Positions 16,175-30,997 of a DNA stretch of 64,000 bases are shown here, piece by piece. Both the position numbers and the translations under genes were made by a program. Source of the DNA: a virus (lineage: Duplodnaviria; Caudoviricetes); IMG/VR virus record IMGVR_UViG_3300031555_003117, positions 10,140 to 74,139 of that record; one strand, given 5' to 3'. The notes beneath the pieces were generated by a model. That model was not told the DNA's origin and ran no database searches. It saw nothing but the letters and a program-made list of their open reading frames with translations. Positions within the stretch are counted from its first letter, which is position 1; each line of letters begins with the position of its first letter.

Positions 16175-18252
16175 TCAAGTCCAATGGTATTTATATTTTT
16201 CCAGTTTACTCTTTCCCATCATACGGTCAGTTGTCATGGACTGAATAAACTTTTCAAACTTGCCGTCATGCTGCATCTTATACATCAGATCATTATAATC
16301 ATCAACATGGTCAATCGGCATATTGAATTCAAAGTGATTCGTCACGCTACCGATGCTCTCACCGCCAGCCGGTTCGCCCATCCTTGAATACAATTTTTCC
16401 AGAGCAACCGTAGTATCCATTGCCCTGCTCATCACGTGCAGGTTATTCGCCAGCTTAGAGAAATTCGTAGCCTGATCCGGCGTCAGAACTGCTTCACCAC
16501 GTTTCAGCGTGTTCACAGTAATTACGTCATCGCCCTGCATCTGAGCAATTCTTTTCAGTTCGCCTACATAGCCGCCTTCGCTAAAGCCCTGAATCAGCTT
16601 GGAACCATTCTTTGAAACCCAAGCCTTTTCGCCCTTGTAGATAATGGAATGCCAGTTGCCTACGGTTTCTCCGCCGTATTCAAATGTCTGGCCTTCCTTT
16701 ACCGTACCGATGTCCTTGTAGCTCTTGCCTGCACCTGTTCTTACATTCCATCTGCCGTCCAGAATTTCAACCTTCATCGGCTGAGTTTCGGGTTCGTCCG
16801 GTTCTTCCGGAGTAGTCGGAATTGAAGGAGGTGTTATCGGCTCCGTGCTTTCAGGCTCGGTTGGAATGGTAGGCGTTGTGGTGGTCGTATTCGTAATTGT
16901 TTCGCCAGCAGTTGTATTGCTGCGCAGAACCATAGAAGAAACGTTGGCGGAAATACCGTTCAGCACAGCATTCAAGCTCGTAAGCTGAGTAGTGAAATCC
17001 GTGCCATACTTGGTAATAACGCCGCTGATACCACCATCGCCAGACCAGATAGCGGTCATGGTGTTTGAAAGCTTCAAGCCCAGCTTGTCGCTGACCGTTG
17101 TGATCGTATCCTCAATCGTCTTTGAATCGGCGTTGATTGCGTCGATCATGTCAGAAATCAAGGCGTCTGTATCATCAAGACGTTGATTCAGAACGGCTTC
17201 GTAATCTGAGTAGAGGTCGTCAAGAAGCTTTTTCTGGTCTTTGATGTACTGGTCATACTGACTTTCTGCCAGTTCATCTTCGGCTTCTGCAAGCTCAACC
17301 TGCAGTTTTTGAATTCTGGCCTTGTTTTCCTCAGAAGTATCATTGGCGTATGCACTCAATTGCTTCTGAAGCTTCTGTACTTCCGAGGATTGCTTCTTGA
17401 TCTTTTTCTGATAATCATATAGGTCTTTGGCGCTGTCAAGAGATTCTTCATAGGCGTCAATCAGTTCCCGCAGTGAATCCAGTTCCAGATTGATACCTTC
17501 CTCTACCATGTCGATGATCGCTTGCTTTTCTTCCTCTGCCGCAGAAACAGATTCATGCTGCAAACTCAGCAGTTCTTCCCTGCGCTCAATCAGGTCAGTA
17601 TTGTAAGGATCATTGGCAATCTGCTTGTCGATCTTTTCTATCTCATCGGCATACTTTTCTGCCTGTGCAAGATAAGTATTATAATTCTGACCATGCAAGC
17701 CCATTGCAGCCATACCTTCATCAGTTAGCTGTCCGCGCTCAGTGTAGAGGTCTGAGTTTTCCAACAGAGAAATCAGCGTGTTCGCTTCATCTGTAATCTT
17801 GGAAATGCGGTCTTGCACATAGTCGAAGTAAGACCATTCAAGGTTTTGTATCTCTGCGCCATATTCGGCAACGGCAACCTGGCTTTCCTGAATTGCTTCC
17901 TTGGTATCATTGATCTGAATCTGCATTGAATACCAGGCTTCGCTGCCTTCTTCAATTTCACCAGAATTGATACCTTGGCTCATAGCCTGAATCAAATCAG
18001 CCAATCGCTTTTCAGAGATGCCTTGCTTGGATTGTTCAACTGCCTGCAGCTCCTTGTAGAAGTTAATGCTTCCGAGGTAGCCCTGTGCGTCAAGTTGAGC
18101 AATGCCGTTGTTAATGGTATTTGCCCTGTGCTCTTCAAGCGCAAGTTCGTTATCCATCTGGGTAGTGATGGTGTCGAATCGCTCCTGATAAAGAGAAGCA
18201 AGGGATTCATGCAGTTCATCAATCGCATCCTTGCAGTCAAGGGCTTTTTCAT
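16175..18252 (-). CDS. Tape measure protein, exon 4 (C-terminal, includes an SH3b-like domain)
   Basis: Frame is open from 18252 (..YEKALDCKDAI..) into track ORF 16175..18157; WNVRTGAG...WVS segment is SH3b-like. Confidence 0.85.
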
Positions 18253-18354
18253 CGTTATCTTTAGTTGGTTAGCTACACCAACTGGATTGTTAATCCCACA
18301 TAGTTTCCTATGTGACGAGACTATATCTTCTACACTAAAAATAACAGTATGATA

Positions 18355-18382
18355 TTGACATAACAATAAATCTACATATAAT
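18355..18382 (+). promoter_or_regulatory. Sigma70-type promoter for the small peptide
   Basis: TTGACA (18355-60), 16 nt spacer, TATAAT (18377-82). Confidence 0.7.
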
Positions 18383-18548
18383 AAAGATGTGGAAACCACC
18401 GTCAGGTCAGGGTTCTTTTCGTATCGTTTTCTGCCTTGGCGGTTGATGGTAAAAGGGCGGTTGCCTCCTAATTCGACACTCGCGTGAGCTGAAAGGAGGT
18501 GCAATGTGCGGCTCCCGACGAGAATACTTTTTCGGAGGTGAATTGCGC

Positions 18549-18683
18549 ATGAAAGCTATTTCATTTATGGGAGACCTTTGTGGCATCTTAGGATTTATCC
18601 TAACGATTCTATTCCGTGTAATAGACTCTTTTAAATGGAAAGCGAGCCGTCTCGCTACAGACGACTCGCTTAGGGGTATCTGA
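18549..18683 (+). CDS. Small hydrophobic peptide (44 aa; 59 aa if started at 18504), type I toxin-like
   Basis: MKAISFMGDLCGILGFILTILFRVIDSFKWKASRLATDDSLRGI. Strong RBS before both possible starts; one TM helix followed by a basic tail; flanked by convergent promoters. Confidence 0.65.
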   Translation: MKAISFMGDLCGILGFILTILFRVIDSFKWKASRLATDDSLRGI

Positions 18684-28090: not shown

Positions 28091-28120
28091 AATGCACCAC
28101 CTATTAATCATGTTGTCAAT

Positions 28121-28149
28121 ATAATAACACTTTGATAAATAGGTGTCAA
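28121..28149 (-). promoter_or_regulatory. Internal sigma70-type promoter for the same-strand cargo
   Basis: TTGACA, 17 nt spacer, TATTAT. Confidence 0.6.
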
Positions 28150-28582
28150 CGCATATGCATCAAGCTACCACTGTTTGACCATCCAAGCTCATGGCAGGGG
28201 AGGGTAGCCCCACTATTTTCTATACGCCAGTTAGCCCACTGGTTTGGTTTTTACCCCGGCATTTGCTGCTGCCGGGTACAGTTTGCAACATACAATCACG
28301 ATTTTCACCGCGCAGGTTTATGTCCTCTGAACCCACCCAATCTCGCATTTGGGCGATGGCTGCTGATAGCTTCATGCGCTATTATATGCAGCTTTACGCA
28401 TGAAACGTCCCAGTCTATCGGCATAAGAACCATTACTTATGCCAGTTTATCCTGTTTTCCCTAGCCCCTCTTGGCTACGCAGCGAGTCTTCGCGCAACCT
28501 CGTTCATGTTACCATTAGTAAAGGCTTCGTGGGCATATTCAACTCGTAGTATAATCCGAAATTGGAACTGATTAATTAGTTC

Positions 28583-30997
28583 ACCCACGTTTTTCAGTGA
28601 GAGTGCAGCAGTTATTGCACCAATAAGCGTAGGTATAGTACCTATCTTTTCAATAACGCCGTCAAATACTGAAAGTATGCCGGTTCCGGCATCAACAAGT
28701 CCCTTTAAAAAGTCAGCCTCAAGAACCGTATTGGAAAGAGACTGCCATGCAGTGGTCAGCTTATTAAGCTTACCCTGTAGTGAATCTACATATGAAGCAT
28801 TTTCCTTTGCCGCAGATCCCGTAGCATTGGTTGCAGCTCTCATTGCTGCTTCTACCTGCTCCCAGTTATTGATCATTGCAGCTACATCACTGGCACGGTT
28901 CTTACCAGCAATCATTTCAAGTACATTGGATTGAACGTTTCCACTGAGAGAATCCCAAACATTGGCAAGGTCATCCATTACTTCATAAGTAGATCGAAGT
29001 TCGCCAAGAGAATCAACCAGGCTTACACCTGTCAAATCCTTCATGGCAGAATTCATCTTAGAAGTAACTTCAATCAACCCTTCAGCATCTTCGCCAATTG
29101 CAGTAAGTTCTTCTGCCGTAGTGCCGCGTAAACGCATTGAAAGCGTTCTAAGTGCGTTACCTGCTCTGCTGGCATTCTGAGTTACTTCAATCATACCCGT
29201 TGCCATTGCTGAAGATTGCTGAATACTATTACCAGCAACTTCAAGCGCAGAAGCACTATTCTTCAAGGCTGCGCCAACATCGGAGGCTTCTACGGCAAAT
29301 TTGTTTCCGAGTTCATTAAAGATGTCGGCAACATATTCTACCGCCTTGGTTACATCGCCGTCTTTAAGTTGAAGTAGCTGATCTTGGAATCCCTTATATG
29401 CGGTCACTAGATCATCAACTGCAGCACCGTGTTCAAGGTCAGTAACATGCTGATACATCGAAGTGACATTAGCAAGCTTTTGTGCATCGTATGCATTAAA
29501 ACCAAGCTTTGCCCAATCAGCAGTTGAATTGATAATATCGGTCAGTTCCGCACCGTATTCTTTGGCCGAAGAAGTCATTCTCTTGTAGAGATTCTTATAT
29601 CCTTCGTCCGTTAGGTTTGTAACGCGGTACAAACCCGTCATTGCAGTGTCAACAGCCAAAACGTTTTGAGCCATCTGTTCAAATACTTCTTTTAATTGGC
29701 TCAAAATCGTTGCTACACTGACATATCTTAAAATACTCCCGAACGCCTTGGTCATCTGTGATCCAAGGGTTTGCCCGGTTTTGCCTAACCTTTCTGCTTC
29801 GATCTTAGTTTGTTCAAATGCTCTTCTGACATTCTCAAACTCTGCACGAGTTAGGCTTCCGCTTGCATTCAACGTACTTAGTCTTGAACGCAAAGCATCA
29901 ATACTTGAGCCGAATTGCCCAGCCGCCTTTGTATTCTTTTGAAGCCAGCTAGACATTTCATTATCAAGCTTGCCTACTTCGATTATACCTACACTTTGCC
30001 TATCCTCAGTCTTAATTGTTGAAAGAGTGCTTTTGACTCTGGTAAGTACAGTTTCAAACTCACGGTAAGATGCAATCAAGTTGTCAGCATCTATATCTGG
30101 CTCCTGCATTGTAGCACTCAGAGTGCGCAATTTCTCCAAATCGTTTGCAACGGTCAATAGACTATGATGCCCCGTGCTGCCAAGCTGCTGATATTGCGTG
30201 GTGACTTTTGCAATGTCAGTTTCAAGACCAACACCACGTTTACCCCCTGCTGCAATAACAGAAAGCGTATCCTTAACCCTTTTAAGAACAATCTCAAATT
30301 CATTATAGGACTGCGCTAATGTATCCGCATCTATATCTGGGCTCTTAATAGTTGAGCTCAAATTCCGCAGCGCTTCCAAGTCGCTCTTGACCATCGATAG
30401 ACTGCGATGCCCTGAATTACTGAAATCCTGGTACTTTGCAGTTACACTTTCGATGCTCTTGTCAAGATTTATACCGCGTTTTCCCTCTGCAGAAATGGTA
30501 GTCAGCGTATTCCTAACCCGCGCAAGCGTGTTTTCAAATCTTTGATAGGATTGTATAAGCGCACCTGCGTCAATATCGGGCGTTTTCATTGTGTCGCTTA
30601 AACTTCGTAGCTTCTGCAAATCGTCCGCAACAATTGAAAGACTATGATGCCCCGTGCTGCCAAGCTGCTGATATTGCGTGGTGACTTTTGCAATCGAACT
30701 ATCTATTTTGCTAAAGTCGAGCGAATCTGCAAGCCTATTGTTGATTCCCCTTGAAAAACTCTGTCCAGAATTTTTAAAAGCGGCGTCAAACTGTTTTTCG
30801 AGACCTGAAAAATTAACGTTGTCAAATGTGATTTTAAATTTATGTTTATCAAGCTCAGACTGAATCTCAGAAACAAATCCCTTGGTATTAAGTGAAATAT
30901 TGCTCAACTTAATTGGCGTTTTGCCTATGCCAGCAACTTGCTCTGGGATTTTTGACGTGTCTAAAATCGCTTGTATTCTAGCTGTATATTCAGACAT
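28583..30997 (-). CDS. Tape measure protein, exon 1 (TP901-like core)
   Basis: VDTAMTGLYRVT...SAKEYGAELTDIINSTADWAKLG...AGNALRTLSMRLRG...IAGKNRA, motifs typical of TMP cores. Exons 1-4 total 9735 nt, giving 3244 aa. Confidence 0.9.

Follow-up and report, generated by a model that had tools for sequence, protein, structure and literature searches.

We examined a locus on the minus strand of a 64,000-nucleotide (nt) stretch of viral DNA (the window; positions 10,140 to 74,139 of IMG/VR record IMGVR_UViG_3300031555_003117, a 74-kb viral contig with an estimated completeness of 48%). Between positions 30997 and 16175 the locus holds open reading frames (ORFs) of 840, 1580, 168 and 660 amino acids (aa), which a first-pass annotation of the same DNA had read as parts of one gene. 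Very probably it is a single tape-measure protein (TMP) gene, belonging to an SPbeta-like phage of gut Clostridia and split by three group I introns that splice themselves out. The coordinates of exons, introns and intron contents are collected in Table 1.

Exons of the tape-measure gene

Joined in order, the four exons make up 9735 nt that translate into 3244 aa, with the sole stop codon at the end and with junction phases of 0, 2 and 1; retranslation confirmed all of these values as first proposed, including the coordinates of each exon. A ribosome-binding site (RBS), GGGAGG, precedes the ATG at 30997, and a terminator-like hairpin lies just after exon 4 (16159-16138). The product has the PhageMin_Tail domain, the full-length collinearity with homologues and the position in the tail module that identify a tape measure. 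Exon 1 matches PF10145 (PhageMin_Tail; E 1.9e-22) and the tape-measure family phrog_4211 (E 1e-69), with profile positions 520-946 of the latter matched by exon 1 and positions 2169-2384 by exon 4, and a DUF6558 tail protein is encoded directly downstream.

A search for longer relatives returned more than 100 unsplit homologues; these measure approximately 3100-3190 aa, and the contigs that encode them reach 142 kb. When the spliced TMP was aligned with intron-less homologues (P0002-P0099), there were no gaps across any of the three junctions, and therefore the exon boundaries appear to be exact rather than approximate. The junction peptides (KNVG/IFK, EIVV/RNGK and EW/YEKALDC, the last preceded by T in the window as TEW/YEK; here and below a slash marks the splice point) are among the best conserved stretches of the protein, which agrees with the earlier remark that they read naturally. 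From this collinearity the predicted 3244-aa product is a phage tail ruler, encoded by one gene in four pieces.

The gene callers report the pieces as separate ORFs, as had been foreseen, and the exon 3 ORF (168 aa) is stored as a protein of its own, P0121. It is therefore worth considering that the four ORFs are translated separately into a multi-chain tape measure and that the spacers are ordinary intergenic or mobile DNA, particularly as in-frame TTG or ATG codons are found at 25859, 19539 and 18157. However, we found no RBS upstream of any of these three candidate starts, so that separate proteins from these positions, an outcome that the first-pass annotation had itself set against a spliced gene, lack the expected translation signals. 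The breaks also fall within codons (phases 2 and 1) and within the most conserved motifs, two of the spacers pass the curated Rfam threshold for group I introns, and every spacer is bounded exactly by U and G, with guides that match. Separate translation is thus highly improbable. For a single gene, with an RBS at 30997 alone, full-length TMP would require all three splicing events.

Introns 2 and 3

Two of the three intervening sequences were recognized by the Rfam covariance model for group I introns, RF00028 (Intron_gpI), for which the curated gathering score is 50 bits. Intron 3 scored 80.1 bits (19044-18297) and the 5' half of intron 2 scored 66.3 bits (21226-20915). The 3' half of intron 2 (19803-19682, the P7'/P9 consensus region) fell below the threshold at 19.9 bits (E 0.25), because the endonuclease gene splits P8. 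A covariance-model scan had been proposed as a check on all three introns; it succeeded for these two and returned nothing for intron 1. In intron 2, the P1 helix is formed by GUGGU/AU with AUGCCAC, and in intron 3 by GGU/AA with UUGCC. Both introns end in G, and both carry two extra hairpins (P9.1/P9.2 in intron 2) and a short tail after P9. The earlier observation that every 5' exon ends in a U pairable with a guide G, and every intron in G, could be read directly from the sequence for all three introns.

Introns 2 and 3 are identical at 187 of 234 positions in their 5' cores (approximately 80%) and nearly so from P4 to P7.2. To judge from this similarity they are paralogues that differ mainly in P1, and the two IA2-like copies would have adapted to two different, highly conserved sites. 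The ORF of intron 2 matches phrog_559 (E 2e-55) as well as further families named 'homing endonuclease' and 'intron encoded nuclease', and by this profile match and its position in an intron loop it is a predicted HNH homing endonuclease. P8 forms a stem of approximately 16 bp around the gene, the 3' end of which overlaps P8', P7' and P9. In intron 3, the endonuclease would have been replaced by a small cassette. There, two convergent sigma-70 promoters, each with 12/12 consensus matches, lie within a perfect inverted repeat of approximately 22 bp, and an ORF with a GGAGG RBS (18549-18683, plus strand) encodes a 44-aa single-span hydrophobic peptide. This arrangement looks like a type I toxin-antitoxin-like unit.

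Exon skipping had been suggested as a means to alter or abort the tail, and because introns 2 and 3 are so alike, hybrid splicing that skips exon 3 is conceivable. However, every exon-skipping product is out of frame and meets a stop within 2-87 codons. Skipping could therefore only abort the ruler, as suggested, and could not shorten or resize it. The predicted product of the unspliced RNA is 840 aa.

Introns at or near the same sites were found on two independent contigs. In L027, one intron occupies exactly the third site, and another, with a CapR-type endonuclease, lies 11 nt from the second. The intron of L026, which contains no ORF and scores 77 bits with RF00028, is close to the second site. 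The second-site IA2 introns of both loci are inserted 11 nt upstream of the insertion point in the window (21217), and exon 3 begins E(T/L)IVR.G in L026 and L027 versus RNGK in the window. Because of this offset, the conserved second-site motif appears to host introns at two neighbouring positions. As a separate observation, the TMP ORF upstream of the intron in L026 (1-9717) was called at 5299 aa and runs off the locus; if real, this would be an exceptionally long ruler.

Intron 1, a predicted divergent intron with remote 3' splice site and cargo

As intron 1 had no Rfam match, it was established by comparative analysis. Relatives were sought with an R-like 18-mer from the putative intron 1 core. 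This search recovered 11 further loci in viral or metagenome contigs, which represent nine distinct relatives (two pairs come from the same contig), and three metagenome-assembled genomes of gut Clostridia that carry relatives, giving 14 relative loci overall. The three genome loci, L029, L031 and L034, come from Clostridia and Ruminococcus, which points to possible hosts. Ten other matches (L016, L018, L021, L023, L025, L028, L030, L032, L033 and L035; five metagenome and five genome sequences) were discarded as chance occurrences of the 18-nt R motif without intron homology. The 5' splice-site motif GUGGGU/GAACUAA opens all 14 loci except L011, which is cut short and duplicates the contig of L022. 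By tblastn, 11 of the relatives lie within a tape-measure homologue, at the same codon where checked, and in the 10 relatives with a mapped 3' end, the first codon of exon 2 is precisely the counterpart of residue 806. The terminal nucleotide is G in all 11 introns with a known 3' end (the window and these 10 relatives), and the members of the family range from 927 to 2726 nt.

The internal guide sequence of intron 1 can pair with both exons. Six of its nucleotides can form P1 with the last bases of exon 1, including a G-U wobble at the splice site, and the other six can form P10 with the first bases of exon 2. Both pairings covary with the exons in L015 and L024, where exon position -7 has changed together with its partner in the guide (P1) and 3'-exon position +4 together with its own (P10). 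The P1 loop contains two hairpins, and Q-like and R-like motifs that are close copies of the classical elements lie in the P4-P6 domain (near 28370-28315). To assess the core fold, we used a curated structure on an alignment of 12 members over the first 415 nt of the intron (alignment A1). In this alignment, the fold pairs 98.5% of the cells, and both sides have changed in 48 of its 98 pairs. In controls with partners slid by one to three columns, only 3-11 pairs changed on both sides, and no shuffle reached the observed values. Pairs changed on both sides occur in each of P4, P5, P6, P8, P9 and P9.1, and P3 has two independent compensatory changes, in the window and in L034. Three loop pairings also covary: L5 pairs with L9, L2 with L6, and the loop of the extra hairpin with the stretch that joins P9 to P9.1. 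A tertiary contact between P9 and P5 is expected in group I introns, and the L5-L9 pairing lies there. Three earlier placements were abandoned when the family alignment gave covarying local hairpins instead: a P7' near the 3' end at UCCUC, a sequence that is the antisense RBS; a P8 drawn as a long-range helix; and a P3 at intron positions 83-87.

The 3' end of intron 1 is separated from this core by the cargo. The 8 nt that follow P7', invariant in the family, form the 5' strand of P9.0 and can pair with the final 8 nt of the intron. The result is an extended P9.0, which has one bulge in the window copy. The loop of the 3'-tail hairpin pairs with a 5-6-nt element at the end of the core (28184-28188). 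At least three different complementary sequence pairs are found among the members for this pairing, and the hairpin stem also covaries. Relatives with 0.5 to 2.3 kb of cargo retain the same 3' tail.

Several points weigh against the view that intron 1 is a working group I intron in a functional phage gene. We obtained no RF00028 match to it at E ≤ 1 over the whole region or at E ≤ 10 at both ends, nor to a 927-nt relative (L020) at E ≤ 10. A hairpin lies between P3 and P4, where none is known to us from the described subgroups. A 6-bp P7 can be drawn directly before P9.0, and its sole G/C pair has C on the 5' strand, so that a clear G-C pair in the usual guanosine-binding orientation is missing. 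This P7 is invariant and gains no support from covariation, partly since the search pattern fixed its 5' strand. An alternative helix also competes for the 3' strand of P7; the RNAalifold helix between columns 82-89 and 328-335, which has only wobble-compatible changes and clashes with P7, was retained as an alternative. The pre-mRNA would also have to extend past two obstacles within intron 1, a strong terminator-like hairpin and a convergent transcription unit. The uncultured viral contig is an estimated 48% complete, which leaves the viability of the phage in doubt, and it is from the DNA that we infer splicing itself and the expression and function of the cargo.

Some of these same points would favour a TMP gene that is broken, in which splicing of at least one intron has become inefficient, with the cargo-laden intron 1 as the likeliest candidate. 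This would mean a defective prophage, or only truncated products of 840 aa or, from an internal start, 1579 aa. Intron 1 has no match in Rfam, it contains an internal terminator and antisense transcription units, and the contig is incomplete. However, the four exons, 9.7 kb in total, are all undamaged and collinear with homologues, and the core, guide, P9.0 and terminal G of intron 1 are conserved, as is the 3' tail in relatives with 0.5 to 2.3 kb of cargo. Compensatory changes preserve the pairing with the exons, which argues for selection on the splicing of intron 1. A broken gene is therefore improbable.

It is somewhat less improbable, though still unlikely, that intron 1 does splice but not autonomously, requiring a protein co-factor (for example, a maturase among the cargo) or a certain polymerase context so that the distant 3' splice site reaches the core. 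In favour of this, four lineages conserve the zinc-ribbon protein next to the intron's 3' end, neither P7 nor the P3-P4 region is typical, and some introns of Bastillevirinae are spliced only in infected cells (PMC11878797). However, other lineages lack the zinc-ribbon protein and have lipoprotein-like ORFs instead, and the RNA-RNA pairings that would recruit the 3' end are extensive and covarying.

Other kinds of element were also considered for the spacers. An intein, a group II intron or translational bypassing does not fit. None of the spacers is an in-frame ORF, the region had no match to a group II intron in the Rfam scans, and family searches found no reverse transcriptase gene among the intron ORFs. 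A blastn search of intron 1 against GenBank phages returned no match, and a megablast search with the whole locus returned only matches of 40-80 nt, in which unrelated phages resemble the conserved core sequences of introns 2 and 3. On balance, we take intron 1 to be a real group I intron despite its absence from the Rfam results. The first-pass annotation had counted three group I introns; this count holds, with two above the Rfam threshold and the first identified through its guide, terminal G, P9.0, P10 and covarying core. Intron 1 is the new element here and, judged by its relatives, it represents a site-specific group I family invisible to RF00028.

The cargo of intron 1 consists of two convergent transcription units with sigma-70-type promoters, and introns 1 and 3 between them contain all four of the best promoter matches found across the 15.3-kb region. 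None of the four ORFs in intron 1 matched a family in Pfam, PHROGs, NCBIfam or PADLOC, and thus no transposase or TnpB match was found among them in these collections. Proteins 35-63% identical to the zinc-ribbon protein are encoded in L015, L022 and L024, and the protein falls in large unnamed phage clusters (Atlas). The main cargo ORFs are antisense in all eight members listed (the window and seven relatives). In L008, L019 and L013, the sole sizeable ORF of the intron is antisense and encodes a signal-peptide-like stretch followed by Cys, as in a lipoprotein. A recognizable homing endonuclease was not seen in any member of the intron 1 family. We tentatively suggest that intron 1 may belong to an undescribed structural class, dedicated to one TMP codon in phages of gut Clostridia, which has lost its homing endonuclease and become a safe harbour for swappable genes open to transcription by the host RNA polymerase. 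On this reading such genes, among them those for the antisense zinc-ribbon protein, for membrane proteins and for the lipoprotein-like products of relatives, could supply functions expressed in lysogeny or early in infection, such as superinfection exclusion.

Table 1. Exons, introns and intron contents of the tape-measure locus (positions in the window)
Feature	Position	Strand	Description
TMP exon 1	28583..30997	-	805 codons; aligns to homologue residues 1-805; ATG at 30997
Intron 1	25857..28582	-	2726 nt; predicted divergent group I; core at 5' end, cargo after core; homologue-defined junctions
Intron 1 catalytic core	28180..28582	-	predicted; P1, P2, P3, extra hairpin, P4-P6, P7, P8, P9, P9.1; alignment A1
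Intron 1 internal guide sequence	28529..28540	-	12 nt; read from sequence
P9.0 5' strand	28279..28286	-	8 nt
Sigma-70-type promoter	28121..28149	-	11/12 matches and TG extension; TMP direction
Small hydrophilic ORF	27935..28090	-	approximately 51 aa; no family match
Cargo ORF	27219..27938	-	239 aa; at least two N-terminal hydrophobic spans; no known family
Intrinsic-terminator-like hairpin	27074..27098	-	10 bp and U-tract; mid-intron 1, TMP strand
Cargo ORF	26469..27035	+	188 aa; antisense; three hydrophobic spans; no known family
Double zinc-ribbon protein	25960..26430	+	156 aa; antisense; strong RBS
Consensus sigma-70 promoter	25897..25924	+	12/12 matches; 3' end of intron 1, against TMP
Intron 1 3' tail	25857..25894	-	hairpin, then P9.0 3' strand; terminal G at 25857
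TMP exon 2	21217..25856	-	4640 nt; spliced frame and homologue alignment
Intron 2	19637..21216	-	1580 nt; group I, phage IA2 type; endonuclease gene in P8 loop
Intron 2 homing endonuclease gene	19701..20819	-	372 aa; HNH type with CapR domain; phrog_559, PF21817
TMP exon 3	19035..19636	-	602 nt; spliced frame and homologue alignment
Intron 3	18253..19034	-	782 nt; group I; RF00028; without endonuclease
Intron 3 P8-loop insert	18355..18780		convergent promoters, inverted repeat, peptide ORF
TMP exon 4	16175..18252	-	2078 nt; SH3_3 domain

Proposed expression of the gene, known systems and implications

We propose that a late transcript of approximately 14.8 kb would run from 30997 to 16175, that each intron would fold so that its guide aligns the splice sites, and that two transesterifications started by free guanosine would follow. 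The ligated 9735-nt message would then be translated into the 3244-aa ruler. If each residue spans approximately 1.5 angstrom, a ruler of this size would set a tail length of approximately 0.45-0.5 micrometre. In intron 1, the 3' splice site, 2.3 kb away, would be returned by the 8-nt P9.0, by P10 and by the loop-to-strand pairing. The pre-mRNA would have to be read through the terminator of intron 1, possibly by a YonO-like polymerase; such an enzyme may make the TMP transcript while the host polymerase uses the intronic promoters. A 643-aa ORF in the window (52696-54627, minus strand) matches PF05183 (an RdRP family), which fits a single-chain DNA-dependent RNA polymerase similar to the YonO of SPbeta-type phages. 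YonO transcribes the late genes of SPbeta as one operon (PMC5467207).

Some other features of the window were recorded as side observations. Directly upstream of the TMP start, where tail chaperone genes would be expected, lies a 349-aa tyrosine recombinase/integrase-like ORF (31045-32094, minus strand; phrog_1, E 1e-30, with weak XerC/D-type matches), separated from the TMP start by a terminator-like hairpin (31043-31024). Two adjacent tRNA genes (49377-49528, minus strand; Rfam tRNA, 63 and 69 bits) lie within the structural/replication region. At 1201-1482 (minus strand) there is an Rfam RT-2 RNA (76.6 bits), and the adjoining reverse-transcriptase-like ORF runs off the edge of the window.

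Introns in TMP genes, and phage genes with three introns, have already been published, and the overall arrangement is a well-supported further case. The TMP genes of Bacillus cereus-group prophages carry the group I introns TMP-IVS1, IVS2 and IVS3 (Tourasse and Kolsto 2008, PMC2504315). As in the window, group I introns are found there at several TMP sites within the most conserved stretches, approximately 80% identical IA2 paralogues are adapted to their sites through P1, and some intron copies are without a complete endonuclease gene (PMC2504315). However, the B. cereus strains described have at most two introns per TMP gene, of subclasses IA1 and IA2 (PMC2504315), whereas the window has three, in a phage of Clostridia; one of these is of a family that the Rfam model does not cover, and its 2.3 kb of cargo is not of the endonuclease kind. 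Three introns in one gene, with exon skipping, are known from orf142 of Twort (according to Landthaler and Shub 1999, as cited in PMC11878797). The DNA polymerase and terminase genes of Bastillevirinae likewise have three introns per gene, with exon skipping in a polymerase gene (PMC11878797). The window shares with these systems three group I introns in one gene and related introns that make hybrid splicing possible. It differs from them in gene, lineage and scale (5.1 kb of intron in a 14.8-kb locus), and in that all of its skip products are out of frame.

The T4 nrdD (sunY) intron, reportedly the subject of work by Michel et al. in 1992, is said to have a 5' core, downstream cargo and a remote 3' splice site recruited by pairing of a short tail. 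The sunY cargo is a homing endonuclease. The core-then-cargo architecture of intron 1, with its remote 3' splice site, also resembles that of IStrons, which carry an IS200/IS605 transposase with TnpB (PMC4227781). In contrast, intron 1 has neither type of cargo, and its conserved cargo is antisense, with its own sigma-70-type promoters. What appears to be new in intron 1, from the comparison of its relatives, is the combination of kissing loops that covary, a 3' splice site far from the core, and cargo that is exchangeable, mostly antisense, without an endonuclease and equipped with host-type promoters.

Since exon 3 is stored alone in the protein collection and approximately 28 further protein clusters resemble a stand-alone exon 3, the annotation of many long TMP genes in gut phages is probably faulty, and any tail length predicted from such genes would be incorrect. 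The locus also shows how intron-loaded a structural gene can become, and it exposes a group I family that escapes the standard covariance model; a recent survey voiced a similar concern about such models (PMC11878797). The presence of the four best promoter matches within introns suggests that the introns here act as landing pads for accessory genes. If intron 1 is indeed a safe harbour, it would persist for its cargo and not by homing.

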